A stretch of 64,000 nucleotides of DNA from an uncultured delta proteobacterium (GTDB lineage Bacteria > Desulfobacterota > Desulfobaccia > Desulfobaccales > 0-14-0-80-60-11). The notes below the pieces were generated by a model. That model was given only the letters and a program-made list of their open reading frames with translations, did no database searches and was not told the origin of the DNA. Shown here piece by piece: positions 44,711 to 62,074 of the stretch. A program made the position numbers and the translations under genes. The stretch's first letter is position 1, and each line of letters starts with the position of its first letter. The stretch covers positions 1,408,001-1,472,000 of the forward strand of contig CAWETI010000003.1 in assembly GCA_963812015.1 (NCBI GenBank). Reading direction: 5' to 3'.

Positions 44711-44797
44711 GCCGAAGTGGTGGAACCTGGTAGACACGCCATCTTGAGGGGGTGGTGGGGAATACCCGTGCGGGTTCAAATCCCGCCTTCGGCACCA
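44711..44797 (+). tRNA. tRNA-Leu (GAG)
   Basis: GCCGAAGTGGTGGAA..GGTAGACACGCCATCTTGAGGGGGTGG..GGGTTCAAATCCCGCCTTCGGCACCA; long variable arm. Confidence 0.97.
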
Positions 44798-44858
44798 GTT
44801 CTTTAATTAAGGCGTAATCTCAAGAGGTTACGCCTTTGGTTTTGAGGTTCCGCCCCCC

Positions 44859-44947
44859 TTTGTCACGAATTTGTCACGGTTTTTTGTGGGCTGATGGGGC
44901 ATTTATCGTGATTACTCCACCCGTGACACCCGTGACAACAGTCACGG
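44859..44947. repeat. Putative integrase arm-type binding sites
   Basis: TTTGTCACG at 44859 and 44870; inverted CGTGACA at 44922 and 44931; GTCACG at 44941. Confidence 0.6.
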
Positions 44948-44952
44948 ATTGC

Positions 44953-46134
44953 CTATTCACTCTCACCCCTTACCAGGCTGAAAGTCTGTCCTGGACTGGC
45001 CTTCGGCCCCCGCAAGGTTTTTACCAAGTCTTTTTTCCCTTCCCCCGGGATCCAGTGACCGTAAATATCTACCGTGATCGAGATGGAGCTATGCCCTAAC
45101 TGTTTTTGCACATAGGCGGGCGAGTAGTGGTCCATCAGCAGCATGGAGGCGTAAGTATGCCGGAGATCGTGGGGATTGTGAATCCGGAGCCGGGCGGCCT
45201 TACATCCTTGCTGCATGGCCCGCTGGACCATGCGCTGGGTGATCCCTGGGAAGAGGTAGGGGCTCGGCAACCTGCCATCGGCTAGGCTCTCTTTCCGCAT
45301 CTTTTTGATGTAGACCTCCAGCTTGCCCACCAGGGTTTCATCCAGATCAATCAGCCTTTTGCCACTTTTCGGCGGCCCAAAGCGGCCCGCCCGGGTGGTC
45401 TCAGTCACATAATATTGACCGTTATGAGCGTCCAGGTTCTCCACAGTCATTGCCAAGGCTTCCCCTAAACGCAGACCGGCCATTGCCATCACTTCCAAGA
45501 TCAGGGGATAAGGTTCAAGAAGTTTATCCCAGGCGGCCTTTAGAAAATTTTCCAGGTCTTGCCGGGATAAGGGATCCGGCTCGTTGCGGACCCTCTTTTT
45601 CTTGGAAGGCAGGAGCCGCTTGAGCAGTCCATGAGCCGGGTTAACCTCGGTATAGCCCAACTCGTTGCCTTCGGTGAAAATACCGGAAATCACAGCATGC
45701 ACTACTTCCACGGTTTTTGGCGATCGGATTTTAAGCAGGTCGGCTAGAAGCCGCTTCACCTGGGCCTTATCCACTTGCTCCAGTAGCAGCTTTTCCAGGG
45801 GTCGCAGAAATTCCCGGACAATGCATTCATACCGCTCCTTAGTGCCGGGGCGCCACCGGGCAGCATTGAGTTCATACCATTCTTGGGCCAGCATCCCAAA
45901 GGTCATATCTGTCGCTTCTCTCATAAGAGTCAGGCCCAAACTGGCTGCCAGATTTTCGGCTGCTTTAACCGCCTTCTTAAAATTGTCTTCCCCTTTACCA
46001 ATAGCCTTCTTCTTCCTATGGCTCGCCCTCCTTAAGATTACCTCCCAACTCCCAAATTCATTGAGGCTGACGAAAATCCCTTCTGAAATTTGATAGATGG
46101 GGCCATGCTTGCCTTCCCTCTGCGGGTAACTCAC
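44953..46134 (-). CDS. int: Tyrosine recombinase / phage integrase
   Basis: GLRLGEA (R), PKSGK (K), HDLRHTYA (HxxR), LGHSSISIT.DIYGH (H, Y). Confidence 0.96.
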   Translation of the reverse strand: MSYPQREGKHGPIYQISEGIFVSLNEFGSWEVILRRASHRKKKAIGKGEDNFKKAVKAAENLAASLGLTLMREATDMTFGMLAQEWYELNAARWRPGTKERYECIVREFLRPLEKLLLEQVDKAQVKRLLADLLKIRSPKTVEVVHAVISGIFTEGNELGYTEVNPAHGLLKRLLPSKKKRVRNEPDPLSRQDLENFLKAAWDKLLEPYPLILEVMAMAGLRLGEALAMTVENLDAHNGQYYVTETTRAGRFGPPKSGKRLIDLDETLVGKLEVYIKKMRKESLADGRLPSPYLFPGITQRMVQRAMQQGCKAARLRIHNPHDLRHTYASMLLMDHYSPAYVQKQLGHSSISITVDIYGHWIPGEGKKDLVKTLRGPKASPGQTFSLVRGESE

Positions 46135-46135
46135 T

Positions 46136-46393
46136 CTACACCTCCTTCATAACCTGGTCCCATATGGCATTCAGGTCAGTGGAGGTGCCGTTGCGGAACT
46201 GCTTTACCCAGACATCAAACTCGCTTCTCCTCACCCGGATACAGCGGCCGATCCGGTAATGAGGCATGTTAAAATCATGTAGCCATTTTTTCAAGGTATT
46301 TCTGGAAACAGAAGCATAGACCGCCAATCCCGAAAGAGAAAAGTATTCAGGCGAAAAAGTTGATAAGTTCTTAATGGAGATAAAATCGGTCAT
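46136..46393 (-). CDS. Excisionase-like helix-turn-helix protein
   Basis: YFSLSGLAVYASVSRNTLKKWL..MPHYRIGRCIRVRRSEFDVWV; abuts the integrase start. Confidence 0.85.
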   Translation of the reverse strand: MTDFISIKNLSTFSPEYFSLSGLAVYASVSRNTLKKWLHDFNMPHYRIGRCIRVRRSEFDVWVKQFRNGTSTDLNAIWDQVMKEV

Positions 46394-46545
46394 CTCTTAT
46401 AGTTGCTTATCTAATGCTTCCGGACCATGCCCAAGGGCCACAGAACTGGGGACATTAAGGAAAATCCATTTTCACACCATCGCCCAACCCCAGCTCACAA
46501 ACTGACAATAAATTGCCCGTTTTCTACTGAGCCTCATTTTTCCTT

Positions 46546-48465
46546 CTACTTAAAAAAAGTGCCCCAGGGCCGGCCGGTCACTGGGTTGATTCCCCTCTCC
46601 TCCGCCACCGGCCGCGGCCGTTCGGGCTCTGGCTTCGGCAACACCTTTACCCCGCCCCAGCATTCCGGGTCGGCCATGGCCAGGGCGTAGATGATAGTAT
46701 CCAGGTAATGGTTAGCCTGCCGCCCCTGCTGGGCCCAGAGCCAACGGCCCCTTTTGTCCCGCTCCTTGGCCTCGGCGGTGAGCTGCCTGACAAAGTCCTC
46801 CCCAGTGTCGGCGTGGAAGTGGACCCGGCCCGACTCCACCCGGGACCAGAAGGCGTCCTTTAAGGCATTGGTGTCCAGGGACCAGAGCCGTATGCCGCCG
46901 GGAATAGGCCGGCCTTGGCCCGGCATACGGTCGATGAGGCTCATCACCATCTTGCGGCCCCCCGCCAGGGCCCGGGAGGCGCCCTTGGTCCCGAAGACCC
47001 GACCCCGGCCCCGCAGCCGCAGCCATTCATATGCCTGTTCCGTAAGGCTGGCGTCGCCCGCCTCCCCTTCACCACCGCCGGTGTCGAGGGCTCCGCGCCA
47101 CACCGGATAGGCTAGGGAACCGTCCCGAGTGCGGTAGACGTCCTGGAAAAGCCAGATCTCCAGTTCGGTGAAGTCCGAGAGCCAACCGTAGCGGATGAGA
47201 TGCTGATTGACGGCCCCGCTCGCGGTCTGCTCCCAGGCCCAGATGGAGCACCACAAACCCCGGCGCTGGTTATCGATTCCCGCGGTCAGGGCCAGGGTAT
47301 TGTCTGGGACCTCCAGGGCCGGCCGCGCGGTACACAATTCCAGGAGGGCTGAGGCTTCCCGCGGCTTCACCACCTCTTTCCAGGGCAGGCCCAGCCATAG
47401 ATTGACAAAGGTCTTGTACTGCTCCCGGTCCTCTTTGACCTCCCAATATTTGGCGGCGATCTCGGCCAGAGTGGCAAAAGGCGAATTCAGAGCGTTCCAA
47501 TGATAGCCGACATGCGAGGTTAGTGGGGGCAGCCCCTGCCCCTGCGGGTCCCAACCTTCCGGCAGCCAGTTTCCCCGAGTCAACATTCCCGGCAGCTTGC
47601 CTTGCTCAATCTCCGCCTGGCAATGGATGCATTCATAAACTGCCGGCCGCTCCAGCTTGACATAATCGGGGTGCCGCTTGTCCTTGGGCCACTCCAGCCG
47701 TTTCTCGCCCCGGTGCTTTACCTGCCAGAAATCCAGTACCTGGTAACCGCCACACTCGGAGCAGGGCATCCAATAGCGGCGACGGTCGGAACGCTGATAA
47801 TCGGTATTGATGAAGCCCTCGGGGACGGTCGGGGTACAGGCCGTAACGATCTTGCGGTTCCAGAAGGTGCGCCCCCGCATCTCTGCCATCTGCGTAGGCG
47901 AACCCTGGCCCTCCACGTCAGCGGGATACTTGTCCGTCTCATCCTCAAAAATATAGCGGGCCTCGAATTCACCCAGGTCGGCAGCGCTGCCCGCAGTGGC
48001 GAAGATGATCTCCAGGTTGTTCAGGATGATGGACTTCTTTTGCAGATCGTCGGGGTTGTCAGTCAGGTGCTCGGCGAGTTTTGGACTCTCCTTGATCATC
48101 CGCTGGATACGCCGGCAGGCCCGCTTCACGGACTTTTCCGTCGGCCCCACCCATAGGACCGGCCCCGGATCTTGGCAGATGACATAGCCCAGCATATTGA
48201 GCAGGATTTCGGTTTTGACCGAACGGGCCGAAGCCATCAGGGTGATCCGCTCCACCTGCGGATCGGTGAAGGCATCCATGGGTCCGCAGGCGAATGGTGC
48301 CAGGCGGTTGCTCCAGCGCCCGGGGATGGAGGCGTCTTTGGGAAATTCCCGGTAGCGCTCGGCCCACTGGCTCACCGTCAGATCCTCCGGCAGGGCCAGG
48401 GCGGCGCGCTCAAGGGGCCACCAGTTAATATGAGGCAAAAAGGTCTCGACTGATTCGTGGTTCAT
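46546..48465 (-). CDS. Terminase large subunit, lambda GpA family
   Basis: PGRW..PMDAF, ASARSVKTE P-loop, DETDKYP Walker B, CTPT, CxxC..CxxC, NLWLGLPW, TAGIDNQ, LDTGG, NHYLDTIIYA. Confidence 0.93.
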   Translation of the reverse strand: MNHESVETFLPHINWWPLERAALALPEDLTVSQWAERYREFPKDASIPGRWSNRLAPFACGPMDAFTDPQVERITLMASARSVKTEILLNMLGYVICQDPGPVLWVGPTEKSVKRACRRIQRMIKESPKLAEHLTDNPDDLQKKSIILNNLEIIFATAGSAADLGEFEARYIFEDETDKYPADVEGQGSPTQMAEMRGRTFWNRKIVTACTPTVPEGFINTDYQRSDRRRYWMPCSECGGYQVLDFWQVKHRGEKRLEWPKDKRHPDYVKLERPAVYECIHCQAEIEQGKLPGMLTRGNWLPEGWDPQGQGLPPLTSHVGYHWNALNSPFATLAEIAAKYWEVKEDREQYKTFVNLWLGLPWKEVVKPREASALLELCTARPALEVPDNTLALTAGIDNQRRGLWCSIWAWEQTASGAVNQHLIRYGWLSDFTELEIWLFQDVYRTRDGSLAYPVWRGALDTGGGEGEAGDASLTEQAYEWLRLRGRGRVFGTKGASRALAGGRKMVMSLIDRMPGQGRPIPGGIRLWSLDTNALKDAFWSRVESGRVHFHADTGEDFVRQLTAEAKERDKRGRWLWAQQGRQANHYLDTIIYALAMADPECWGGVKVLPKPEPERPRPVAEERGINPVTGRPWGTFFK

Positions 48466-48480
48466 TGTTGGTCTTTCACT

Positions 48481-49221
48481 TCATAAAGGCTTTATAACGT
48501 CCTGGGGCAAAATGGGGTCTTCGCTGGCCGCCTGTGTCCCGAACTTCTCCGGCAGCGGCCGGCAGATATTCTCCAGGTGCTCCCGGGCCACCCGGCTGAT
48601 GACCGCCTCTATTTCGCGCTCATTCGTGCAATAAATGAGCAGCGGCGGCAATAACCGAGCGAAGCCGAGCATAGAGACCTTGAAGGCCATGGCTCGGGCC
48701 GCAAATAACGCCTCTACCTCGCCCCGCTCCACCAACTCCCCCAATCGGGCCCGATATTCCAATTGCCGGACCAGGGCCTGATATTTTTTGCCTTCTTTGT
48801 CCCAAAAATCCTTGCCGCTTTCTTCCGGCAAATTCCACTGTCTCTGTTCTTGCTCCCCGGGGCGCCCTGGACCACGCACCCCCTGCTGCCTATCCCGCCA
48901 GGCCCGGATCTGGATCAGGTCGTAGCGCCCACCGGATAGGGAGGGCATTCCTTGTTTGTAAGCCCAGCGCTGGACCGTCCGCAAAGACTTCTTGAAATGC
49001 CCGGCCACCTTTTCCAAACTATCGACGATGCTATCGCTCGTCGCCTCCGGTTTTTCCTCGGGCTTACCTCTCAATTTTTTTTCTAATAATTCAAAAGACT
49101 TTACCTCTCCAGGGGTTAGGATCTCACCCCCTTGGATTTTTTTCAAAATATCCTGGTAGGCCTTAGCGGTGGCCTTCGGGCCCAGATTTAATAACTTTTC
49201 AGTATCCAGACCTTCAGTCAT
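48481..49221 (-). CDS. Terminase small subunit, Nu1-like
   Basis: VAGHFKKSLRTVQRW..QGMP..YDL winged HTH like lambda Nu1; LEYRARLGELVER coiled coil; directly upstream of terL. Confidence 0.8.
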   Translation of the reverse strand: MTEGLDTEKLLNLGPKATAKAYQDILKKIQGGEILTPGEVKSFELLEKKLRGKPEEKPEATSDSIVDSLEKVAGHFKKSLRTVQRWAYKQGMPSLSGGRYDLIQIRAWRDRQQGVRGPGRPGEQEQRQWNLPEESGKDFWDKEGKKYQALVRQLEYRARLGELVERGEVEALFAARAMAFKVSMLGFARLLPPLLIYCTNEREIEAVISRVAREHLENICRPLPEKFGTQAASEDPILPQDVIKPL

Positions 49222-49222
49222 T

Positions 49223-50458
49223 TTAGGCGCAGACCTCAATCAGCTTCGGCTCAAGGCCCATCTGGGCCAGGCGCTCCAGGGTGACGGCGACGTATTCGGG
49301 GGCGATTTCCATCCCGTAACAAACCCGCCTGAGTTGCTCTGCGGCAACCATTGCCGTGCCAGATCCAAGGAAGGGATCATAAATTATCTCACCCTCCTGG
49401 GAACTGTTTTTGATAGCCCTGGCGATTAACTCCACCGGCTTCATGGTGGGATGAAATTCGGATTTTAGAGGCTTATCCACCTCCCACAATGAATTCTCGC
49501 CGGCGCCTCCATAGAACCTATGCCCCGCCCCCTCCACCCAGACGTAGATAATCGGCTCATGCTTGTAGTTGTAGTCTGAACGTCCCAGGACGTGATTATT
49601 CTTTGCCCAGATCAAGATGTGGTGCAGAGGGAAACCGGAATCTTTAAGTGCCAGGAGGAGGAAGAGGAGGAGATCCCCGCCTTGGGGTCCGGTCACATAA
49701 TAACAGGCCCCCGGCCTGGCGTGGCTGCGTGCAGCCGTGAATGCTGCCCTCCAAAAGGCTGACATTTCCTCCGGGTTTTGATGATCACATGCAATGGGAG
49801 TCTGAATACGGTTGCCTTTGTCAATCGCATTCAGGAACTTATTTTTTGCGGCGTAAGAAACTCCATAAGGGGGATCGGTCACGAGAAGGTCATACTTGTC
49901 ATTATCAAACAATTTGTCAGAGTGAAGGCAATCCTCGCAAGCTACCCGATGCCGCCCCACCCGCCATATCTGCCCTAAAGCCGTACCCCACTTTTCTTGA
50001 AGCTCCCCTGCCTTGTCAATCTCCGGGCCGGGGTCCTCTGGCACAGGCTCGCCGCCGGCGCCTTCCAGCTTTAAAATATCGGTCAACTCATCCAGATCAA
50101 ATCCTGTTAAATCCATATCAAAATTCATTTCCTGCAGCGCTTTGAGTTCGAGTCCTCAAATCTCTGGAAACCATTCAGACTCGGACACCTTGTTATCAGC
50201 AATCCGGGCAGCCCGGGCCTGTTCGGGGCTTAAGTAATCAGCCACCACCACCGGCACGGTCTTGAGGCCCAGCGTTTGGGCCGCCATTAACCGCCCATGG
50301 CCCTTAATGATCACCATATCCGCATCCACTACAATCGGCTGATCCCATTGAAACTCTGCTATCTGGTCGGCCAGCTTTTTGACCTGGCCCTCCGGGTGCG
50401 CCTTAGCATTTTGGGCGTAAGGAGAGATCTTCTCAATCGGGATCTGTTCAATTTTCAT
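49223..50458 (-). pseudogene. ParB-N domain / beta-class N6-N4 DNA methyltransferase fusion interrupted by one in-frame TGA (50156-50158)
   Basis: PYAQNAKAH..PIVVD..GHGRLMAA..RIADNK (ParB), then EWFPEI*GLELKALQEMNFDMDLTGF in the same frame; DPPY, HPTMKP, DPFLGSGT. Confidence 0.85.
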
Positions 50459-50554
50459 ACAATTTTCCTTTCCCTAAAATTTGCTTGTCGTTAATAACGT
50501 TAATGTGAGCTAACGACATTCGGCGACACCCGAAAAAAATGTCTTGCTTGGAAA

Positions 50555-50602
50555 AGCAGAGCGCCTCCGTACCCTTGTTAAATTTTGCCCCAGGAAGGAC
50601 CC
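50555..50602 (-). other. Putative cos packaging site (cosQ/cosN-like)
   Basis: Minus strand GGGTCCT-TCC..AGGGTACG-GAGGCG resembles lambda GGGTCCT-TTCC..AGGTTACG-GGGCGG; upstream of the terS/terL module. Confidence 0.6.
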
Positions 50603-50656
50603 GCTGAGGCCGCCAACCTTGACCGGCTCCATTTCCACGCCCCACACGCTCTCGCT

Positions 50657-51679
50657 TCATGTTGCACCTCCATACTCAGCAAGGCCGGCCTGTACCCACG
50701 CCCTGAGTTTCATGCCGCCTTTAAACATTTCGCCGGGGTCCTTACCGCCAATGGGGGGCCAGCGCCGCGCCTGAGGATAGTGGTCTATCCACCAGTGCCA
50801 GGCCTCCCATGCGCCGGCCCGGTCAGCATCCAAACTAACCAGGATCAACCGGCTGTGCTGCAAGAGATTCGCCGCTTCCCGGTCCGGCCTGGCCTGGGCA
50901 TTTCCCAGGGCCGCCAGGTTCGCCAGGTCGCCGGCCTCTTGCTGCAAGAGTAGGGCGTCAAGCTCCGATTCCACCAGAACGGTCACGGGCTCCCGCTCGC
51001 CTATCAGCATCGCTTTGGTGCTTGCCCCCCGCACGATGTAGTAACGGGGCTCGCCTTCAGGCCGCCGGATTCGCACCCGTTGCACTTGGCCGCCTTGAAA
51101 GAGGGGAATCGTTAACCCTTTCGGAAGCCACAACTTCTTAGGCCTGCCGTTGTCCTTCAGGACCTCCGCCAAGCCCCAGGCCGGCGCTGCCTCCCACCGA
51201 TCATCCGGGATATAGCCCAGGTAAAACTTTTTGATGGTATCGGGGTTAAGCCCTTTCTCCTTACTTAGGAATTCCACCACTACCTTGCCCGATGCTGCCC
51301 AAAGATGGTAAATGGCGTCCTCCACCAGCCGGCGGGCTTGCCGTTGCCATAGATCATCGGGAGAGCAGCAGGTCCGGGGCTCCCAGGTGGGTTTGCTCAC
51401 TGGCTTATCGCCCGCCAAGGGCGACCGGGGCTCCCGGCCCAGGCATTCGCAGGCTACCCGGTAGCTCATGCGCCGATAATCCTTGAGGTATTGAATTGCA
51501 TCGCCAGCGCGCCCGCACTGCCGACACCAGTATTTGCCCACATCGCCTTGATTGGGCCAGCAGCGGAACCGATCCCGGCCCCCACACCAGGGACACGGCC
51601 CGCAATACTCGCCGCCGTGTGTACACCCGACACGTTTAGTAAGAAATCCATCTGCTTGAATTAACTCAATAATTGTCAT
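50657..51679 (-). CDS. Primase: zinc-ribbon plus TOPRIM domain
   Basis: GPCPWCGGRDRF..WCRQC; VESELDA, LDADRAG, KDPGE. Confidence 0.88.
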   Translation of the reverse strand: MTIIELIQADGFLTKRVGCTHGGEYCGPCPWCGGRDRFRCWPNQGDVGKYWCRQCGRAGDAIQYLKDYRRMSYRVACECLGREPRSPLAGDKPVSKPTWEPRTCCSPDDLWQRQARRLVEDAIYHLWAASGKVVVEFLSKEKGLNPDTIKKFYLGYIPDDRWEAAPAWGLAEVLKDNGRPKKLWLPKGLTIPLFQGGQVQRVRIRRPEGEPRYYIVRGASTKAMLIGEREPVTVLVESELDALLLQQEAGDLANLAALGNAQARPDREAANLLQHSRLILVSLDADRAGAWEAWHWWIDHYPQARRWPPIGGKDPGEMFKGGMKLRAWVQAGLAEYGGAT

Positions 51680-51695
51680 AGCTAACCATTTTTAG

Positions 51696-51786
51696 TGTAC
51701 CGATGTAGCGCTTTACCCATTATTCTCCCTAGGAAACCTGTGTTTTTGGTTTTAGACTTTTATGGGGGTTTGGGTACATCGGTACA
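51696..51786. other. Putative replication origin (12-bp inverted repeats flanking a T-rich spacer)
   Basis: TGTACCGATGTA (51696-51707) and TACATCGGTACA (51775-51786). Confidence 0.5.
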
Positions 51787-53328
51787 TTATTGTCCGTTAT
51801 TTGTTAATCCTAATCCTTTATAATATTTACCAATTTTGTCTCTATCCTTGTAAAAGCGCTGATGTATCGTTTGGGCAAATTTCTTTTCCCCAACGGGCTT
51901 GAACCCATCCTCTTTACAAAAATCAATATATGCTTCACGTAATTCCCCAGCGCGAGCAATCTTCCCTTCACCAATTACGCAGCACTCCTCTAAAAATTGT
52001 TCAATCGAATCTTCCGACCGGCGGTATTCTTTGGTGGAGCTTAAGACAGAAGAGGGGGGGGCCAGTCCTTTTTCAAGCCATTCGTAATAGCCAGCCACCA
52101 ACCAGGCCATTATTCCCATCGCCTCCTCTTTTAATTCGGCAGCGAGGTGAGGATTTCTGAGCCGCTGGTTATCTCCTTTGGGATCATCTACGAAGCTAAT
52201 GGGAAATTCGACCAGATGCAGGCGATCCCATAGCGCCGCATCCGCAGGATTAACCACTGGTCTGAAATTGGTAATCAGCAGCAGGGTATGTGAGGGGGCA
52301 AAAGTAATTTCTCGCCGGTCATAGGGTCCGCGGCCCACCAGGGTATCACCGCCACAAAGCCATTTCACCTTACCCGCATTGAGCTTACGTCCCTCATCCG
52401 TCTCCGAAGCCCAGACCAGGCGCTTACCTCTGAAAGCCATGATTTCGGGTGAAGGGGCTCCGGGTGATCTTGGATATTTTTGCGCTAAGAGAATTTCTGC
52501 TTGAATTGGGCCAGCCAAAGGCCCCATGCAAAACCCCAAAGTTTCAAGCGCGGTACCCTTGCCCGACCGTCCGCCTGGCCCCCACCAAATAGCGAGCTTG
52601 TGGTCAATTACCCGCCCCGGAAGTGCAGACCCTAAAAGCCTTTTGTTATAGCCAATCTTTTCACTATCGCCAGCCATAATATCTTTCCAAAATTGCTCCC
52701 ATTTATGGCATGGAGCCCCAAAACCCTTCCATGCCACCGGGGCGACGTTTTTGATAAAATCCTCTGGCTTACCAGGGCGAAAATTGCCTGTTGGAAGATC
52801 GAGTATGCCATTTGTAAAGGGCAATAAGTCAGGATTGGAATCCCACTCATTCCCCCGGATCCCTAAGCTATCCGCTCCCGCTGCCGCCTGGATCAAGACA
52901 TCTTGCAGATAGCGCCGTCGGTGCAAACTGGACACTTGCTTTTCGACCAGGTGTTCAACCCATTCCGCCTTTTTAACTTCTTTATTGTCTCCAAATTTAA
53001 GAGCATTCATTTTGCGCTGATACCAGCGCTGCCCCAGCTCGATAAGCGGTTCCGTCAGATCACTAGCCATAGCGAGCTGCTCATCCCGGTCACAGGTGAG
53101 CCAATAATGTGAGCCATCGGGGAATTGGTACCAGAGTTCACTGGCATGGTCTTTTACAAGCCGGCCGCGCTGGATATGTCTGAAAAGCTTTGCGGCCCCA
53201 TTCTCGCCGGCTGCGCACCATTCGAGAAGCAGGTCATCACCCAAGGTCATAAAGCCAGCCTGCTCGGCCGCAACCTTGGCCCGGCCCTGGACCTGGTATT
53301 CTGATACCTGCTCAGTTTCGAAGGTCAT
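51787..53328 (-). CDS. P4-family / D5-like SF3 helicase
   Basis: D5_N-like WDSNPDLLPFTNGILDL; Walker A GPGGRSGKGT; LVWASE; LITN; WDRL; C-terminal winged helix. Confidence 0.92.
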   Translation of the reverse strand: MTFETEQVSEYQVQGRAKVAAEQAGFMTLGDDLLLEWCAAGENGAAKLFRHIQRGRLVKDHASELWYQFPDGSHYWLTCDRDEQLAMASDLTEPLIELGQRWYQRKMNALKFGDNKEVKKAEWVEHLVEKQVSSLHRRRYLQDVLIQAAAGADSLGIRGNEWDSNPDLLPFTNGILDLPTGNFRPGKPEDFIKNVAPVAWKGFGAPCHKWEQFWKDIMAGDSEKIGYNKRLLGSALPGRVIDHKLAIWWGPGGRSGKGTALETLGFCMGPLAGPIQAEILLAQKYPRSPGAPSPEIMAFRGKRLVWASETDEGRKLNAGKVKWLCGGDTLVGRGPYDRREITFAPSHTLLLITNFRPVVNPADAALWDRLHLVEFPISFVDDPKGDNQRLRNPHLAAELKEEAMGIMAWLVAGYYEWLEKGLAPPSSVLSSTKEYRRSEDSIEQFLEECCVIGEGKIARAGELREAYIDFCKEDGFKPVGEKKFAQTIHQRFYKDRDKIGKYYKGLGLTNNGQ

Positions 53329-53442
53329 AGCAAAGCCTATAAAGGATCAACCTTAATTTTGCCGGCTTCCGTAAAGGTTGAGCTGTTCAACCTCTGTGTC
53401 GGGATCGTAAATTTTCTTTGTCAGGGCGATACTCCTGAAGAT

Positions 53443-53471
53443 AAAAAAACTGCCCCGTTCCTGTGGGGCAG
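53443..53471 (-). terminator. Intrinsic terminator upstream of the helicase gene
   Basis: CTGCCCC-acaggaac-GGGGCAG-T7 on the minus strand. Confidence 0.7.
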
Positions 53472-53557
53472 CTTAGTGAAGCAAATGAGCTCAAGCAATT
53501 GAGCAATGTGACCTTTGCGAAAGCAACATAATGGAGCTTAAGCAAAGGTCATATTGC

Positions 53558-54352
53558 TTAACCAAACGGGGGTAATTTCTCCTCTTTTAATCTCCGCTTG
53601 ATCGTGTCGAGCGAGGTAAAGTGTTTCTTCCCCGGCGCACACACATACTTCTTATCTAATATCTCCTGAATCTGAACTGCCGCTCCATGTTTAGACTTAC
53701 CATTAATCGAAATTAATCTATAAGTTTCTAAGATTCTTCGTTTATTTTCGCCAGTCCCCATCCCCCGCCTTATAGCTTTACACCTCTTTTGCTCATAATC
53801 AAAGTAATTGCCTTCTGCGCATAGGTGTATCATTATTTGACCGCCGATTGCGAATAACTTAAGAGTTGCGATCTCAATTTTAGTTAAAAACGTAATAGAA
53901 ATGGATTTATCTCCTAATATTTCTGGCATAAATTGATAAATATTCCATAATGCCCAGAGATGATCTCGAATCATTACTGGATCAATTGTCGTAGGGTCAT
54001 AATTTGGAGATAGCATTTCCTGATATGATGCGATTAGAAAATCTTCATCATAAAGCAATCGGGCTTTTTGCTCAAGAAGTTGGATTTCTTCGTCAGTGTA
54101 ATCTGCTTCATTTATAGCAATATTCCTCGCGTCATTTGATGAATTGATTTTTGCAAACTTATTTAATTCCATTTCAAAGTTACTATTTTCTTTATACCAA
54201 AATCCTTCCAGAATGCTGGAATAAGCGGTGATAAATTCATCAATTAAGATTAATTTTACTTTCCAAAGTTGACCTAATACGATTTTTCCATCCTCTTCTG
54301 TTTTCTCCGACTGCTGAGAGAAAAAGTGTCTTAATTTTTCATAGTCAAACAT
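53558..54352 (-). CDS. AT-rich hypothetical protein, possible C-terminal HTH
   Basis: 264-aa ORF; GGAG RBS; SKHGAAVQIQEIL..SLDTIKRRL tail. Confidence 0.65.
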   Translation of the reverse strand: MFDYEKLRHFFSQQSEKTEEDGKIVLGQLWKVKLILIDEFITAYSSILEGFWYKENSNFEMELNKFAKINSSNDARNIAINEADYTDEEIQLLEQKARLLYDEDFLIASYQEMLSPNYDPTTIDPVMIRDHLWALWNIYQFMPEILGDKSISITFLTKIEIATLKLFAIGGQIMIHLCAEGNYFDYEQKRCKAIRRGMGTGENKRRILETYRLISINGKSKHGAAVQIQEILDKKYVCAPGKKHFTSLDTIKRRLKEEKLPPFG

Positions 54353-54544: not shown

Positions 54545-56620
54545 TCATGAATATTTGAATCCTTCACCCTCAAGACGTTTATTAATTTTCAGGAGCTTGG
54601 CACTCTGGTACTCAGTTGGAATCCTCTTTGGCAAATTGGCAGCTATATCCATCAGGCGATCCTCTTCCGGTGAAATGAGCCTTTGACCAAGCCCCCAGGA
54701 TCTCAATTGCAACCAGTAATCAGCTCCAAGATTCACTACCTGAGCCTGCGCCTCTATGCCTGAATCAATGACTTGCAGCGTTCTTCCAGCACGTCGGACC
54801 ATTCGGTCCTCCTCTTCATCAACCAGCTCTGAATAGAAATCGGGCAGAATGGCAACATTCAAGGCTTCAGCCCTTTGCCAGCATAGTTCCTTCTTACACC
54901 ATTCGGTCACATTTTGAATACCTGCAGGGGAATTTACAATAATCTCAAATACGGATCGGGCCAGCAGAACGATCTGTTCTTCAACAGGCTGGCTTATTGA
55001 CTGGCGTTGCCAGATGGATCGAAAGTCCAAAACCTTTCCTCTGGCTTTCGTTTCTATCAAAGAGACAAGCTTGGCTATTGTAAATGCTACGATTTGTGCA
55101 CGATAGCCCCCCAAGTACCAAGGCTGGGAGGAGACCAGCTTTTCTGTGCGCCTGAAAAGGATCGCTCGCCCAACAGCTCGCTTGAAGTAATCTTCGTTGA
55201 TAGCTTCGTTACTCTTCTCCCATTCCAAAGAAATATAGCTCGCAAAGGCCATGAAGTTTTTCTGGGCACCGCGGCTGACCATGTGAGGCAGTTTGCGCCA
55301 CGCATTTTCATATTTTGCAAGGTCTGTTTTTGTGAAAACCTGCTCGCGTGGGTTCATGGCTTGAAAGCGCTTTATTTCTGCAGGCGACATTGCTGCGTAG
55401 CTGTTCTGGTATTGGCCGCGAGTGCGTTCATAAAACCAGTGAGTTTCGTGCTGCAGACCGCTCCTGGCAGGTGCCCCTATTCGACGTGAGAACTGCTCTA
55501 TCCTGCGATGAAACTCGTGATTGGAAAAGAAGTCAGCGTCACTGACTCGGTTCTGGCTGTTCGCATAGCGTGAAATCAGAGGGATTATCTGACCGGATAC
55601 TTCTGGACTGATTATCGAAAGCTTCATCGGAACGAGAGTGCAGTCGAGCTGGGCTCTGTCTCTGCGCCTTGCTGCAGCCAGGGAGGCCGTGGTCTGTCCA
55701 CCATTTACGATTTGGAAATCGGTAGCCTGGAGCACATGTAATCCACCCGGCCCATCCTCTATGACAGCATCTGAGCAGGTAGCAGCAATGCCATTGTTAT
55801 ACGCAAAAAACATGTGAGGTTCGTTAAGGATAGTGGTCCTTATTCCTTTGTTGATCCGACCTCTCGTGCTGAGAAAGGACCTGACGTTGCCCTCAAGCAG
55901 ACGGCTCCCAAAAGTGTCATAAATGGATGCCAGAATATTTCCAGGTATGGCGCTCAGGTATGCTCGATATTGTTCAGTATTTATGCTGGCAGCTAGGCAG
56001 GGCAGTCCTCCCGCCAGGAACTCCTCAAAATTTATTATCAGCTCATCCCGTCCGGCTTTGGAGATGAACACACGGTAGAACCGTGATATATCCCAGATGT
56101 GAAACTCGGTCGGAATATGCTTTATATCTGCCTCAGGCCAGTCTCTTATGCGTGAGCTCAGCTGTGCATCCGTTAAAAGATAGAACCTCAGCCGGGTAAC
56201 GCTTGACAGTTGATCATGAATATTCATGGCCAATCCATGTCCCGGCGTGCTCTCTTCGATAACATGGACCAGCCGTCCATCTGCTGCATCCTCGAAGAAA
56301 GCCTGAAGCCTTCCGAAAAGTGACTTGGCCTGAGTCTGGGTAAGAGTCGGAATCCCTCCGTTTTCGCCAACAATGGGCTCGGCAACAAATAGGCGGATAG
56401 ATCCGTCGGCCTCATCAAAAGCATATCCATCAACAGCTATGGCCCGGTTCCTGGACCCGGTCCCCCTGTAGTAACAGGGTTGAAAATCAAAAACTTCTTC
56501 GGAATCTTCAAGCAGATGTGCACTGTACTCGACGAATGCGGAGTGGTGAAAGTTCATATCAGCTGAAGCCCATACGGCCACATGCCCCAAAAAGTCCTTC
56601 CTGTATTCTTCAAGATCCAT
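54545..56620 (-). CDS. AIPR family protein (MzaE-like)
   Basis: LLEGNVRSFL, FFAYNNGI, QIVNGGQTT, NSQN, WFYERTRGQY. Confidence 0.93.
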   Translation of the reverse strand: MDLEEYRKDFLGHVAVWASADMNFHHSAFVEYSAHLLEDSEEVFDFQPCYYRGTGSRNRAIAVDGYAFDEADGSIRLFVAEPIVGENGGIPTLTQTQAKSLFGRLQAFFEDAADGRLVHVIEESTPGHGLAMNIHDQLSSVTRLRFYLLTDAQLSSRIRDWPEADIKHIPTEFHIWDISRFYRVFISKAGRDELIINFEEFLAGGLPCLAASINTEQYRAYLSAIPGNILASIYDTFGSRLLEGNVRSFLSTRGRINKGIRTTILNEPHMFFAYNNGIAATCSDAVIEDGPGGLHVLQATDFQIVNGGQTTASLAAARRRDRAQLDCTLVPMKLSIISPEVSGQIIPLISRYANSQNRVSDADFFSNHEFHRRIEQFSRRIGAPARSGLQHETHWFYERTRGQYQNSYAAMSPAEIKRFQAMNPREQVFTKTDLAKYENAWRKLPHMVSRGAQKNFMAFASYISLEWEKSNEAINEDYFKRAVGRAILFRRTEKLVSSQPWYLGGYRAQIVAFTIAKLVSLIETKARGKVLDFRSIWQRQSISQPVEEQIVLLARSVFEIIVNSPAGIQNVTEWCKKELCWQRAEALNVAILPDFYSELVDEEEDRMVRRAGRTLQVIDSGIEAQAQVVNLGADYWLQLRSWGLGQRLISPEEDRLMDIAANLPKRIPTEYQSAKLLKINKRLEGEGFKYS

Positions 56621-57567
56621 CAGATTTCCTCCAGAGATCCAACTTTAAATTCTTGGCATACTGATAGATCAATCTCGTAGCTTATATTTACGACGCCTGA
56701 CGGGACATCGGAGCGCCTGATCCGGGGGAAACCCTCTTCAACTTTGAAGAGTTGTATCCCCTGCAATCGAAAGAATATCTGTTCGTATTCCGGGCGGTCT
56801 ACATAGCCTGCTGCAGAAAGTCTGGTTTCAAAAGCCGGTAGAATGTTTTCAGATTCAAGTATGTCTCTTAAATCTCTGACCAGTCCGGCGGGTGCGAACC
56901 GGTCTTCGGTCTCTTCTGATGCGCGTGCAAGGGTGAAAACAGAGAGAACCAGCCGGGTTTCAGCTGAATTGAGCTGCTCAACGGATGATATTCTGGCCTT
57001 GGACGAGCCGGGCCGTACAGTCTTAACCTCAACATTGAGTTCAGGGAAGACGAAGTCATGTGGGGCGTCGAATGGCCCCTCCCATCCTGTTAGGGACAGG
57101 CTTCCGCCCCACCGGGGTATTGCTGTGTCTTTCAGGAAGAGCAGCTCTCCAACCAGACCCCTGAGTTCAGCATCAGAGAGGAGATCGCTGTGTGGCTCAT
57201 CCATAAGCCTTTTCCAGCGAGCAAGTCTTGAAAGCAGGAAAGCGGGGGCAGACTGTTCGGAGGCTTGGCGGCTCGATTCCACCAGATCCTCACAGAGCAC
57301 AGCAAAATGAGAGAGAAACTCGTACTTCTTGAGCGCTATCGTTAGATACCATCTGGAATCAGATCGCTGGCTCCGGCTGACAGAGACTGCCGCATAATCA
57401 GGAGGCAGCGGCGGCTTTTCCTTGCTGATCAGGGTGATACCGGGTTCATTGGTATTCAGAACTATTGCATAAAGGTCCAGTGGATGAGTATCATCTACTC
57501 GGCGAAAGGCCGGGCGCTCAGAGACGGTCGCGAGTTCTTGCCACAGCGCTTGAAGTTGCAAGACCAT
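56620..57567 (-). CDS. PD-(D/E)XK motif protein (DUF4420, MzaD-like)
   Basis: RGLVGEL, WEGP..HDF, VEVKT, ISSVEQL, FPRI; TGATG coupling to AIPR. Confidence 0.88.
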   Translation of the reverse strand: MVLQLQALWQELATVSERPAFRRVDDTHPLDLYAIVLNTNEPGITLISKEKPPLPPDYAAVSVSRSQRSDSRWYLTIALKKYEFLSHFAVLCEDLVESSRQASEQSAPAFLLSRLARWKRLMDEPHSDLLSDAELRGLVGELLFLKDTAIPRWGGSLSLTGWEGPFDAPHDFVFPELNVEVKTVRPGSSKARISSVEQLNSAETRLVLSVFTLARASEETEDRFAPAGLVRDLRDILESENILPAFETRLSAAGYVDRPEYEQIFFRLQGIQLFKVEEGFPRIRRSDVPSGVVNISYEIDLSVCQEFKVGSLEEI

Positions 57568-60238
57568 TCTCCTCTATGTCTTCCTCATCATCGGCTTCAG
57601 ATTCAAACATGGAACGCCATTCAACCAGATTTACCCTGTACCTGACCCGGCCTGCAATGCCACTATCATCGAACTTCGGAAAGCTCAGCCCGAGAGCAAT
57701 GAGAGGATCCCCTCCGGAATCGTAAGGCTCTCCATCAAGATATGCGTTCACCACATGGATCAGCAGCAGGGGACGATAGCGGATACTGCGATACATTTTA
57801 TCCGGTACACTTTTTCCGGGGTTCTCGGCCTTGTATTTTTCCTCCATCATCCTGACCTGTTCAGGATCAATCCCCTCCCTTTCAACCCCGCGGGAGCCGA
57901 CTCGAGCCCTTGCGCCAGAGACGATAATAGCCTTCGATTGGTTGTTAATTTCAACAGCCCTTCGCTGAGGTCTTATCCTTACCCCCAAAAAGTCGATTTC
58001 GGGTTCTCCTCCATTGGGGATCGCCACATCCCATTCAGCCAGCCTTGGCTCGGGTGTCCGGTCAAGAAAGTCCGCAAGATCAGCACCCTGAAATAACATA
58101 TTAGAAGGATGACTGTCATACCTCCTGAGAAGCTTTGCGATCAGTGCTTTCGGCACCTTGCGCCAGAGCGAATTACCAAGTGAGGAAGTTTCCTTGGCGA
58201 TGCGAGTAACTGACAGATCATCCAGGAAGTCTTTAACCGCCAGCACGTTAGCACGGAGTGAGTCTCTGGAAAACCGGATTCGAGGGGTTTCAATTCCCGT
58301 CTCACTGACAGAGACAAATTTTTCGATTGTTTTCGCCAGTCGCATCTTATTCCGCGCTGTAACAATAAGGCTGTCTGGAGAAAGGCGAACCTTCAGGCCA
58401 AAATCCCTGGGTGTTCTGTCCATAGCACGCATTTTCTTGCACTCATCTCTGAGTTCCTCACTGGCAAGGGAGATATGTGAATACCACTGTGCTGCATCAT
58501 CGGTGATCCAGAGCCTTATGAGATCCTCATATCCATCCCGGTAGCCAAACCAGCGTCCCATTTGCAGGAGTGTGTCATACATCTGAGAATTGCGATAAAA
58601 ATAGCTGGTGGAAAGACCCTCAAGGGTGAGACCACGAGAGAGACTATTTCCCCCAACCGCAATGACACGGAGCCCTGTCTGTGAATGAAGCCTGTAGTCA
58701 AGACTTGCTGCCCCGGTGCGCTGGTTTACCGCCTTTACGACAACCGGGAGAGCGCCCTTAGGCAGACCTTTCTGAACACTTGGCCAGCTAAATCCCGCAC
58801 TCTGATACTCGCGCTCCCATGTGCGCCTGAGTTCGGAGATGCTTTCAATCCTCAGCGCCTCACCTGTTGGAAGCTGGCTGTAGTTTCTAATATCCTGCTG
58901 AATTCTGCGAAGTTCCAGATCGATGAGTCTTTCAACCTGATCTTGAACGTTGGTGAACTGGCTGACATTAACGAGCATTGACCTGTGGCTTGGTCCCGCA
59001 CCCCGCAGATCCCGAATTGTTGTGGCAATGATAAACGTTCGGATTGCCTCGTGAAGGCTTTCCGGGAGATCTTCAACAATGAGCGAAGACTTGTGCTTTG
59101 GCGGGAAGGATGCTTCTGCATCCCTGATTGGTCTCAGCAGTCTGCTGTCTTCGTCGAAGACGACAGATGGACCTGTATAGTTGCTGGGGGCGTCAAGGCA
59201 GTAGATAAAATCGCGTGGAAAAAGGTCGTGTCCGAGCATATCATCTTCAGTATCAGGATCAACGAAGATGTTTGCAAAGGGAGTTGCTGTGAATCCGACA
59301 TAGCTTGTCCTCGTGAAAAGATGCAGGATCGAGCGGATTCTTTCATTGATGGCTGTCGGATCATTATCCTGTGAGTTGGTATTGATTGATGCGTTGTCCG
59401 CTTCATCGTCTATAAGCAAAAGAGGGGAATCTATCCTGCCGCTGCTATCAGCATTGAAGTTTCGGAGCCAGTTTTCGAGATTTTCGAGTATTCGCTTATT
59501 CTTTTTGACCACAACCAGAACCGGCTCTATGAAGACATTTAGCCTGAAGTTCAGAGCATTCAAGATCTCTTTGTTGAAATCCCTTTGACGTGAAGTGAAG
59601 ACCCCTGCAGACCGTCTTGAATCGATCAGGCCAACACCCACTACCCGACGACTATGTTTTTGCTTGAGAATGTTAGAGCTGTCCAGGCCCACAAAACCCT
59701 CGTCGAGCCGCTCCTGTGTCTGACGCCGGAGATTTTCCAGGGTGCCCGTAAGCAGGATTATGAGTTTATATCCAGCATCGGCAGCCTTGGAGCAGAGCGC
59801 TGTGTACGTTGCTGTTTTCCCGGACTGGACATTACCGACTACAAGCCCGCGCCGTTTCCAGGAATTTCCCAACTCGGGATTCCCGAGTTGATCCAGTATG
59901 TTATCCGTTACGCGGTCAAGGGTAGATACCACCTGCGGCGGCCATGAACGTCGCCTTAGGTACATAGAGTACCGGTCCCAGTAGAAAAAATTTATTGCAG
60001 GTTTTCTGGCGCTTAGCCATGGAACATGATCCTGTTCTACGAGAGCCGTGCCTATCTCCATCGTAATGGTAAGGCGGGCATGAAGACTCCTGATCAGATG
60101 TTCAAAGTCATCATCTGGGAGGGGGAACGCCGTTCGAAGCTTCGATGCCATCTCAAACACTTCATCTTCCGTAGGGACTCGGTCACCTGGTAACGAGACT
60201 AGAACAGCGTTTTCCAGCAGTTTGAAATTTTGGTTCAT
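57518..60238 (-). CDS. SF2-like ATPase with Z1 domain (MzaC-like)
   Basis: GNVQSGKT, IDDEADNAS, GFTATP, HRSMLVNVS, SRGLTLEGL, DTLLQMGRWFGYR. Confidence 0.93.
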   Translation of the reverse strand: MNQNFKLLENAVLVSLPGDRVPTEDEVFEMASKLRTAFPLPDDDFEHLIRSLHARLTITMEIGTALVEQDHVPWLSARKPAINFFYWDRYSMYLRRRSWPPQVVSTLDRVTDNILDQLGNPELGNSWKRRGLVVGNVQSGKTATYTALCSKAADAGYKLIILLTGTLENLRRQTQERLDEGFVGLDSSNILKQKHSRRVVGVGLIDSRRSAGVFTSRQRDFNKEILNALNFRLNVFIEPVLVVVKKNKRILENLENWLRNFNADSSGRIDSPLLLIDDEADNASINTNSQDNDPTAINERIRSILHLFTRTSYVGFTATPFANIFVDPDTEDDMLGHDLFPRDFIYCLDAPSNYTGPSVVFDEDSRLLRPIRDAEASFPPKHKSSLIVEDLPESLHEAIRTFIIATTIRDLRGAGPSHRSMLVNVSQFTNVQDQVERLIDLELRRIQQDIRNYSQLPTGEALRIESISELRRTWEREYQSAGFSWPSVQKGLPKGALPVVVKAVNQRTGAASLDYRLHSQTGLRVIAVGGNSLSRGLTLEGLSTSYFYRNSQMYDTLLQMGRWFGYRDGYEDLIRLWITDDAAQWYSHISLASEELRDECKKMRAMDRTPRDFGLKVRLSPDSLIVTARNKMRLAKTIEKFVSVSETGIETPRIRFSRDSLRANVLAVKDFLDDLSVTRIAKETSSLGNSLWRKVPKALIAKLLRRYDSHPSNMLFQGADLADFLDRTPEPRLAEWDVAIPNGGEPEIDFLGVRIRPQRRAVEINNQSKAIIVSGARARVGSRGVEREGIDPEQVRMMEEKYKAENPGKSVPDKMYRSIRYRPLLLIHVVNAYLDGEPYDSGGDPLIALGLSFPKFDDSGIAGRVRYRVNLVEWRSMFESEADDEEDIEENGLATSSAVARTRDRL

Positions 60239-61707
60239 TATTTTAGCCTTTCCAGAATGCTTCTGGTCTGTTCCGGGAAAAATACAAAGGGCTCCATGCT
60301 TGGGATTGCCTGTAAGAGTCTTTCGGCAGCTTCTGGATCCCCCGAAAGAGATTCAAACATAGAAGAGATTATCGTGGCAAGCATCTCTGCCTCCCCGTTT
60401 CCTTCTGTTCGGTTCTCAACGTGTCTATCAGCAGCCATATCGGCATAGACAGCAGCGAAGGGAAACGACACCTCCAGCGAATCCAGGAGACTGTCAAGAA
60501 GTGAAAGCTCCTCGTTTGTGATCTCAGCTTTCAGGGTTTGCAGCAGGGGATGATCTCGGTTTATGCGGTAAAGGATTCCCTGTCGGCTGTCGATACGGTC
60601 CCATACATGAGTTATAGAATCCTGGGTGACCCTCCTGCCGCGGAAAGTATAGACCTGACGGCTTGTTTCGCCAATTCTTTCGATAATCCGCCGGAGGCCC
60701 TGACGGACCGCTTCGGGTGGAGAGGCCGTAGACTTTTTGATGTCCAATGTCCAGAAATGGTCCAGAGAATTAGGTATCTCGACCATAACACGGGCAAGCT
60801 TTGTAAGTTCTTCCTGCCTCGAGAGTCTGAACCATGTGCCCCAGGTAATAAGCCGACGATTCCGGTAAATATAGAATCCCTGATTTCTGCGCAGTCCTTC
60901 CTCCCCGCCGGCAATTCTTCTCTGTTCCTGGCTAAGCTTTGATAAGTGAGGAAGGATGTATGGAAGCACACGGACTCTGCTGCCTTCTACTTCCAGAACT
61001 TCTTCTGGAAGTTTCTGAGTCGCTTTATGGGAAATCAAAAATGGATCCAGCGCTTCGACCCTGTTATTGTTAATATAAATTTCAATACGGGGTCGGGTTC
61101 CCTCCGCGGAAAGGTACCTGTGAAACACAAGAGCAAGGTGATCGCGAGCCCGGTCAACGAGCTCGCCCAGTCTTCTCTCCAGGTTTGAGTAGCCAGCCTG
61201 TAATTTATCAAGTTCCTCCCAGATTATGAGCGTTCCTTGCCCCATCTCCATCAGCTCAGCTACGTGGGGTTTGGCTTGTGCTTCATGGTCGGAGAGGACC
61301 AGGAGCACCCACTCATTCCGCTGCGCTACAAAATCAAGATCCCAACAGCCTGCACTAAGATAGCCATCTTTTAAAGAAATCACAGTTAGCTTGCGGCATT
61401 GTGACAGAGAAGCGGTCTTAAGGCCCAAACCAAAACGCCCAAGATCTTCAGGATCCCGCTCAGATGAGGGATGGCGGCTGCCGTGGCGCATTGCATACAC
61501 CAGTTCATAACGTTCCATGCCAGATCCATTGTCGAGGAGAGCTACATAAGGATCTCCGAAGGGCCGAAAATCAAGTCTGATTTCGCGTGCTCCAGCAGAG
61601 ATGCTGTTATCGATCAAATCGGCTATAGCGGTCTCAAAGGAATAACCAACAGCCCTAAGCGACTCCAGCAAGGTGGACGCAACCGGAGGCAGTATAATTT
61701 CATCCAT
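60238..61707 (-). CDS. MORC/MutL-like GHKL ATPase (MzaB-like)
   Basis: DLIDNSISA, DNGSGM, DLGRFGLGLKTAS, QGFYIYRNRRLI, LDIKKS; TAATG coupling to Z1. Confidence 0.92.
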   Translation of the reverse strand: MDEIILPPVASTLLESLRAVGYSFETAIADLIDNSISAGAREIRLDFRPFGDPYVALLDNGSGMERYELVYAMRHGSRHPSSERDPEDLGRFGLGLKTASLSQCRKLTVISLKDGYLSAGCWDLDFVAQRNEWVLLVLSDHEAQAKPHVAELMEMGQGTLIIWEELDKLQAGYSNLERRLGELVDRARDHLALVFHRYLSAEGTRPRIEIYINNNRVEALDPFLISHKATQKLPEEVLEVEGSRVRVLPYILPHLSKLSQEQRRIAGGEEGLRRNQGFYIYRNRRLITWGTWFRLSRQEELTKLARVMVEIPNSLDHFWTLDIKKSTASPPEAVRQGLRRIIERIGETSRQVYTFRGRRVTQDSITHVWDRIDSRQGILYRINRDHPLLQTLKAEITNEELSLLDSLLDSLEVSFPFAAVYADMAADRHVENRTEGNGEAEMLATIISSMFESLSGDPEAAERLLQAIPSMEPFVFFPEQTRSILERLK

Positions 61708-62074
61708 ACAGAAACCGACTCGCCAATGGCGGAAGAATTTTGCCGGCTTACAAGCCGCTAAGAGACAGCAAACTCGACGTTAGCACAAACTATTTCATGC
61801 ATGCAAGGTTTGACTAAACTGCTGTCATCGCGGAAACAACCCTTCGGGTTCGGAGCAGTCCAGAAATCGGGATCTCGCCTGCGGCGGGGACGGCAATTCG
61901 GGTTACGGATTGCGAAGGGCAGGAGAATTGGGAATTGCTGATAGAGAGTCGGGGAGAGCCACACCCCCAAGGGCCGAGAAAAGCAGGATTCCAAAGGATC
62001 ATGCTCTGTCCGGTATGCAAACCGAGAAATATGAAGTCGTTTTTGGTTAACATCCATGTCTAAAATGGTCCATA

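Follow-up and report, generated by a model that had tools for sequence, protein, structure and literature searches.

A tRNA-Leu island with its own cos site and lambda-type terminase but no shell genes: a probable helper-dependent phage satellite

How could a chromosomal island spread that carries a phage packaging motor and the site at which this motor cuts, but no shell to receive the DNA? The question is raised by a stretch of 64,000 nucleotides (the window) from an uncultured delta proteobacterium of the Desulfobaccales (contig CAWETI010000003.1, positions 1,408,001 to 1,472,000, forward strand), in which an island at a tRNA-Leu gene holds all of the DNA-acting parts and none of the shell. 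We consider that the element is probably a helper-dependent phage satellite with its own complete cos-cutting terminase. The sequence-only reading of the window had proposed such a satellite, and the proposal is now supported by the lack of shell genes, a recurrent gene junction and purifying selection. Comparison with related sequences indicates that the element is real, recurrent and under selection.

The terminase block and the missing shell

The core of the island consists of nine minus-strand open reading frames (ORFs) at 44953-54352 (9,400 bp), the last of which ends 156 bp from the tRNA gene. The sequence-only reading had described this unidirectional 9.4-kb module, running from an orphan gene to int and att, at the same place, and its gene identities agree with the Pfam and PHROG matches. 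The large terminase gene terL (46546..48465, minus strand) encodes a 639-aa protein of lambda gpA type, in which both the GpA ATPase domain (PF05876, E 7e-64) and the GpA nuclease domain (PF20454, E 1e-46) are complete. The adjacent terS (48481..49239, minus strand; phrog_57, E 1e-17) is of the Nu1 type with an N-terminal extension, and probably starts at the ATG at 49221. TerL D398 aligns with lambda D401. The counterpart of TerL E176 in the alignment is lambda E179, the catalytic carboxylate (PMC6379665). The terminase is thus complete, as first described, with its catalytic residues kept. In the TerL clade introduced below, none of the Walker, nuclease and other motif residues varies across the 12 full-length rows, and variable positions are similarly frequent in the ATPase (48/285) and nuclease (54/283) domains. 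The C-terminal tail is NPxTG-like, and a similar tail occurs in 13 of 18 TerLs from portal-bearing phages. Residues N627, P628, T630, P633 and G635 are invariant in the 12 rows, while 17 of the 26 linker positions vary. A complex prediction for TerL 381-639 with two copies of the G015 phage portal (residues 36-405) gave a score of 0.00, which has no bearing either way.

Ratios of nonsynonymous to synonymous rates (dN/dS) were calculated by the Nei-Gojobori method, at dS values of 0.37-0.56 overall. For terL, the ratio was 0.129 against the metagenome locus L053 (332 codons, dS 0.47; nuclease domain, 0.078) and 0.134 against L069 (165 codons). The values were 0.19 and 0.15 for terS, 0.05 and 0.08 for the methylase, and 0.11 for ParB. 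By this measure terL and terS are under purifying selection, and the terminase looks functional.

The cos site lies at 50520..50606 (minus strand), as aligned with lambda (J02459) and 15 related sites: a cosQ heptamer (50602-50596) is followed by a cosN-like stretch and a T-rich tract. A profile built from 14 relatives, with the window and lambda excluded, gave one significant match in the 3.96-Mb genome, at 50520-50606 (E 6e-13; next, E 2), which bears out the cos-like site of the sequence-only reading. The heptamer was confirmed as that of lambda in J02459, where it precedes the left end by 30 bases. Related phages with sufficient DNA on the upstream side have a single copy, some 120-140 bp ahead of the terS match, and it was not found at four distant or unrelated terS matches. 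The alignment and profile indicate that this site is truly homologous to lambda cosQ/cosN and to its counterparts in related phages. A 70-aa ORF over cos was taken as spurious, as it matched no Pfam or PHROG family.

The island is bounded by a 64-bp attL (44777..44840, plus strand), formed by the 3' end of tRNA-Leu(GAG) (44711..44797, plus strand; ARAGORN and Rfam), the integration target, plus 43 bp, and by an attR outside the window (G000:C3:1494558-1494621, window-equivalent 86558-86621) that is identical to attL at 62 of 64 positions. The distance from att to att is 41,781 bp, as against the 19 kb or so visible in the window. With the second att copy and the genes before it in hand, no portal or capsid gene appeared beyond position 64000: none of the 19 ORFs between window position 62.5 kb and attR matches a PHROG head or tail family. 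Portal, capsid, tail and capsid morphogenesis genes were likewise not found in the core and cargo ORFs scanned, nor were lysis, head or tail genes or a repressor switch found between the att sites by PHROG and Pfam. Over the whole of this 99.86% complete genome, neither the portal family PF05136, nor eight phage structural references (tblastn), nor a profile of 20 related portals had a match; unrelated capsid families were not scanned genome-wide, so that the genome may hold a helper of another type. TerL has a single match in the genome. The assembly (G000, 3.96 Mb) has 5.7% estimated contamination, a figure that fits two small contigs (C4 and C5) repeating one gene block.

Recurrence of the junction and the wider island family

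Of the 170 relatives found in a protein search with TerL, 19 make up the top cluster. Among the 15 of these that were listed, 11 are full-length and in frame (the island protein included), 2 frameshifted and 2 short. In the tree, the island TerL falls in a clade of 17 rows (support 99) that is sister to P0137 and nested among phage TerLs, and the source names of its close relatives point to metagenome-assembled genomes of Desulfobaccales and other Deltaproteobacteria, among which the host is probably to be placed. Three of 23 metagenome loci (L053, L069 and L068) belong to this clade. L053, an independent metagenome contig, repeats the order terL-xis-int-att at tRNA-Leu, with 80% identity over terL-xis-int and 93% at tRNA-Leu/att, and L069 covers methylase-terS-terL. 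The genome G009 carries cos-ParB/methylase-terS at 87% with different upstream DNA. Four sequencing runs were also compared, namely X1, which is probably the source run and not independent, X2, X3 and X5, an RNA run whose contigs are not evidence of transcription. The sediment run X2 covers the core module at high identity, with pieces over int, terL, terS and methylase, a contig bridging xis to the end of terL (53 letters on the short side), and a 4,524-bp contig that covers primase, D5 helicase and orphan before 490 letters unlike the window. In X3 and X5, int to ParB is covered in short pieces; their lack of contigs over the cargo was given no weight, nor were the small word shares of further runs. 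The cos, TerS and TerL are kept as one block in G009, L069 and X2.

These copies bear directly on the junction where phages place gpW and portal. The spacer between terL and xis is 152 bp (46394..46545, minus strand), matching the gap of about 150 bp first noted, and is alignable with L053. The sequence-only reading would have been refuted by a junction unique to this genome, but the portal-less terL-xis junction recurs in L053 and in the bridging contig of X2. No TerL of the clade was found among 24 + 24 IMG/VR loci, largely the same contigs, where the best match was 64-65%; a portal lies 0.5-3.5 kb downstream of terL in 22 of 24 loci, the other 2 being too short. The nearest portal-bearing phages are 54-70% identical in TerL. 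A sample of 401 genomes of the phylum held no further close TerL, the extra genomes G101-G105 gave 0/5 matches to the terL protein, and only one further genome among the 83 of the order has terS at 90%. In other genomes, unrelated islands occupy this tRNA site. No empty att site was seen among the loci examined. A test for a single clade of portal-less rows gave a p-AU of 0.0004; the group was chosen after seeing the tree and some rows lack known context, so the result is only suggestive.

Some candidates were set aside. In the error-ridden L068 (89% DNA identity to terL), an apparent second integrase type after terL was not counted, as three frames had no PHROG match and tblastn gave only E 3.5e-4. 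The L016 locus (genome G046), with a piece of terL, an excisionase and an integrase at tRNA-Glu, is a remnant only: its terL is 5'-truncated and frameshifted, and its tree position is unstable. Among 11.8-kb Ralstonia records with a GpA TerL, the single record inspected includes a portal gene and is a piece of an ordinary phage. Two further arrangements were observed. L121:1094-4519 (IMG/VR) has a ParB 76% like that of the island, a Mom-like modification gene, a long-form terS (59%) and terL, its TerL belonging to cluster P0007 (17 members). L018:1947-5254 (G065) has terS followed by an 879-aa ORF in which a ParB domain is joined to the ATPase half of TerL; tRNA-His is nearby, and the 1.9 kb downstream had no portal match.

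Many islands in the order have primase and D5 but no terminase (L106, L110, L112, L115-L118), and xis-int modules at tRNA-Leu that lack a terminase are common too (L107-L109, L113, L114). Three siblings are att-bounded or flanked by repeats. L110:3493-18897 (G102; 15.3 kb, tRNA-Glu) has the order int-orphan-D5-primase-cos-short TerS (about 94 aa)-S49 protease-tape measure, without TerL; it also holds a fragment of tail-tip protein J. L062:4710-21098 (16.3 kb, tRNA-Phe, perfect 48-bp repeat) carries cos, TerS, TerL and a tape-measure gene and has no portal or capsid; its TerL is 61% identical to that of the island and sits on another tree branch. L177:920-16668 (15.7 kb, tRNA-Arg, 62-bp repeat) has cos, a 135-aa TerS consisting of the helix-turn-helix (HTH) only, a tape-measure-like gene, no TerL and no capsid, and shares six other genes with L062, the two forming a satellite family that bears a tape-measure gene. 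Thus the slot after cos alternates between full TerS plus TerL and a short TerS of Rpp type, and the nesting of island TerLs at two or more separate places among phage TerLs indicates that islands have captured TerL at least twice. This alternating slot is the strongest reason to regard these elements as satellites rather than phage debris. Other islands were noted in passing. L112:2978-8012 (G012) is a D5-primase island with an HK97-type major capsid gene (PF05065) and is PICI-like (PICI, phage-inducible chromosomal island). The same genome as the window holds a second integrase plus primase/D5 island at a tRNA (G000:C3:1126500-1137500), with a restriction-modification-like cargo gene and without terminase. 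L105:4791-13301 (G010) is a decayed relative at tRNA-Leu, without terminase; its internally deleted integrase is 87-91% like that of the island, and 88 bp resembling the attR-proximal end of the island lie about 8.4 kb from it.

A possible life cycle and its rivals

As a satellite, the island would be excised from tRNA-Leu by Int and Xis across the att pair observed, all 41.8 kb of it, and would be replicated by its primase and D5 helicase from the putative origin between them. Its own TerS would bind its own cos, where TerL would cut by analogy with lambda, in which TerS anchors TerL at cos and TerL docks on the portal through its C-terminal domain (PMC9026076). The C-terminal tail of the island TerL may then dock on the portals of proheads from a lambdoid phage with the same terminase family, whether that phage has just entered the cell or already resides in it, and this helper would supply tails and lysis. 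A TerL of its own would free the island from the need for a compatible helper TerS-TerL pair, which the HTH-only siblings would have to recruit, just as Rpp PICIs must recruit helper TerL through helper TerS (PMC9026076). The lineage would have arisen when a cos-ParB/methylase-terS-terL block was captured from a lambdoid phage into a primase/D5 island, and lambdoid phages of the same host group are likely both donors and helpers.

The size of the island fits this scheme. Lambda packages DNA up to near 105% of its genome length. Particles with 78% of the genome length also exist (PMC4513876). Given these limits, a cos element without a capsid-shrinking gene should either approach the length of the helper genome or be packaged as multimers. 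The 62 TerL relatives include 18 contigs of 30 kb or longer. Ten of these measure 38-44 kb, and the island, at 41.8 kb, falls within this mode; three copies of the 15-16 kb siblings would measure 46-49 kb. The cargo may thus bring the unit to about one helper genome, packaged as a monomer. We give even chances to the fuller proposal of a terminase-owning, capsid-borrowing strategy, in which the whole cos-TerS-TerL block is repeatedly captured from lambdoid helpers, the docking tail is kept, and cargo grows to one helper-genome length, so that each particle carries 30 kb of defence and host genes.

Two other explanations appear unlikely, and equally so. In one, the element is a satellite whose terminase mainly interferes or transduces, by cutting or blocking helper cos, soaking up proheads or packaging flanking DNA in situ, and the helper terminase can package the island. 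Helper TerL could cut the island cosQ/cosN, given their close resemblance to helper sites; the siblings L110 and L177 persist although they lack TerL, and the island has defence cargo. However, conservation is equal in the ATPase and nuclease domains, which is what a working motor requires, and TerS, TerL and cos stay together in G009, L069 and X2. In the other, the island descends from a prophage that became defective by losing its structural block; the lineage now passes vertically or decays, and any mobilisation is accidental. The cos-ParB/methylase-terS-terL order is indeed that of a block in phage late regions, the outward direction of int is that seen in prophages (PMC10111431), several copies have broken genes, and defective prophages can act as proto-hitchers (PMC11389934). 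A freshly broken prophage, one form of the alternative that the sequence-only reading had offered, is nevertheless weakened by purifying selection and by the sibling satellites: two copies with the same deletion junction, separated by a dS of 0.47, have a dN/dS of 0.13. The distribution is also patchy, with terS at 90% in a single other genome and unrelated islands at the same tRNA site elsewhere, the flank differs in X2, and the replication genes are nearer to those of terminase-free islands (55-70%) than to the fused primase-helicases of phages (31-36%). It is improbable that the element is a full phage with att just after terL-xis-int and its head and tail genes at the other end, an arm that this copy lost to cargo, since, although the far end is unseen in L053, L068, L069 and X2, the clade TerL is missing from the IMG/VR loci, the attR end here holds host-like genes only, all 22 portal-bearing relatives keep the portal 0.5-3.5 kb after terL, and L062 is a complete att-bounded TerS plus TerL element without shell genes.

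Several observations weigh against a helper-dependent satellite. A helper of this portal family is absent from the same genome and occurs in only 2 of 83 genomes of the order, and the 38-44 kb contigs of matching size may be incomplete phages. This copy is the only one with both ends known, and the downstream context is known only for the window, L053 and X2, the latter in short contigs. Decay is common: the ParB-methylase gene has a stop in this copy that is not seen in relatives, the L053 integrase has a stop, 2 of the 15 listed TerL cluster members are frameshifted, and terL is truncated in L016 and in pieces in L018 and L023. No repressor, AlpA or Stl was found among the core ORFs. Work attributed to Bobay in 2014 is said to have found purifying selection in defective prophages that hosts keep.

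Other island genes and the place among known satellites

The tyrosine integrase (44953..46134, minus strand; 393 aa, PF00589, phrog_1) is intact and points outward to attL; its relatives (57-77%) are at tRNA-Leu of other islands. The excisionase-like HTH_17 protein Xis (46136..46393, minus strand; 85 aa, Pfam and PHROG) is closest to the xis genes of tRNA-Leu islands, not to the HTH gene after terL in phages. The ParB-N6/N4 methylase fusion (49223..50458, minus strand) has the families first named (ParB_N and N6/N4 methylase), but the two are a single gene, split in this assembly by an in-frame TGA at 50156-50158. The gene is one 411-aa ORF in G009, and the codon reads Leu in all covering contigs of X2, X3 and X5, X1 giving no cover there. 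The primase (50657..51679, minus strand; 340 aa, zinc ribbon plus TOPRIM-like, Pfam and PHROG) is 47-70% identical to primases of terminase-free islands, and the D5/SF3 helicase (51787..53328, minus strand; 513 aa, D5_N/Pox_D5) had no match in an IMG/VR protein search. Between them lies the candidate origin (51693..51789, no strand assigned), with 15-nt inverted arms 67 nt apart around an A-rich core. Inverted arms of differing sequence occupy the same spot in 4 of 4 related islands examined (L110, L106, L112 and L115), so the origin first proposed is more than chance, and this conserved layout with changed sequence suggests that the spacer serves as a replication origin. The 264-aa orphan at the left edge of the core (53558..54352, minus strand; no Pfam family) is possibly a regulator. 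It is 36% identical to the same-slot gene of L110 and about 90% in DNA to run X2, and an Atlas search gave unnamed clusters only. A search for regulators among the core ORFs by Pfam and PHROG matched HTH_17/excisionase only. An Rfam scan found the tRNA as sole match, and promoter and terminator counts equalled those of shuffles (10 vs 7.6 and 14 vs 12.9).

The cargo (54545..64000, minus strand) comprises Mza-like defence genes (AIPR, DUF4420, Z1 and MORC ATPase; MzaE/D/C/B by PADLOC, and Pfam), Vsr and a C5 methylase; MzaA had no match among the PADLOC rows listed. The C5 methylase ends at window-equivalent 64272, and host-like cargo runs from there to attR: the ORFs on that side encode, besides the methylase, a small integrase, an aminotransferase, MlaC, sensor kinases, an MFS transporter, DUF72, MucR and unknowns. 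The G+C content is 53.5% in the core, 49.6% in the cargo and 58% in the chromosome. The earlier claim that the element spreads a defence cassette stands in part. An Mza-like cassette is present, but the sole independent contig past the orphan, in X2, continues into different sequence, which suggests that the cargo is variable. At 62433-62688, a 128-bp tandem duplication (86%) repeats the Vsr start at the C5 methylase end. Where the defence cassette gives way to the host-like cargo lies a 196-aa tyrosine recombinase with the catalytic domain only (window-equivalent 64623-65213; L001:2623-3213), which may be the mark of a nested insertion.

Membership in known satellite families was judged by comparing components by hand. 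The island resembles Gram-negative cos PICIs (EcCICFT073 type, Rpp-cos; PMC9026076, PMC10085698) in its tRNA/att bounds, integrase, xis-like HTH gene, primase-helicase with putative origin, lambda-like cosQ/cosN, lack of tail and lysis genes, unidirectional core and defence cargo, and the Rpp layout of cos plus a short TerS-like gene is seen in L110 and L177. Unlike them, it has a full-length TerS, a complete TerL and a ParB-methylase, and no capsid-morphogenesis gene. PICIs have a median of 9.5 kb against 41.8 kb here, and their order is Integration-Bro-Replication-Late with int pointing inward (PMC10111431), whereas the island has xis-int downstream of terL, pointing outward. It does have the PICI core features of an integrase with an att pair, a primase-replicase module and terS. 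The PICI core contains terS and not terL, which marks capsid-forming PICIs (cf-PICIs) along with portal and head genes (PMC10085698, PMC13612085); the PICI definition thus excludes the complete GpA-type terL of the island. With cf-PICIs it shares its own terS and terL beside an integrase and a primase module, but it lacks capsid, portal, protease and head-tail genes and its terminase is of GpA type, so it would need helper proheads as well as tails. In elongated PICIs the late zone after the replication genes is filled with clusters from helper-like phages, which PICIs are proposed to capture (PMC10111431). This is likely the route for the island and tempers its novelty. No type with TerS and TerL only is named in the available text of that paper, and one supplement searched holds no terminase terms, gene-content figures aside.

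Lambdoid temperate phages of the same host group (G015:C26 and IMG/VR loci L028-L050) share cos, terS, a GpA-type terL (54-64%) and the C-terminal tail, and cos with a Nu1/GpA terminase is a lambdoid-prophage feature of the island. Those phages continue terL-HTH-gpW-portal-protease-capsid and have a fused primase-helicase; the island does neither. For VEIMEs, tycheposons and EPIPs, terS alone is described (PMC9618062, 10.1101/2020.12.28.424599, PMC12822802), archaeal satellites with a capsid protein or packaging ATPase offer a loose parallel (10.1101/2025.02.15.638363), and terminases or cos sites are taken as signs of phage mobilisation (PMC11389934). No description of a shell-less satellite with TerS and TerL was found in the literature available, subscription journals being mostly outside the search. 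The claim that the island fits no known class therefore needs qualification: by the features tested it belongs to no described family, but the boundary with PICIs that capture late genes from helpers is gradual.

Described satellites either borrow helper TerL, as PICIs, PICMIs, VEIMEs and tycheposons do, or own a TerL with capsid and portal, as cf-PICIs do. The combination still missing, an island that owns motor and cos but has no shell, is supplied here; at present such elements are probably recorded as defective prophages. The island would provide a clean test of whether helper range is determined by the TerL tail-portal contact rather than by TerS-TerL pairing. If the terminase-owning, capsid-borrowing strategy is true, one island family gives a natural series from PICI towards cf-PICI, and a phage-sized satellite could carry large defence cargo among the uncultured bacteria of sediment and peat.

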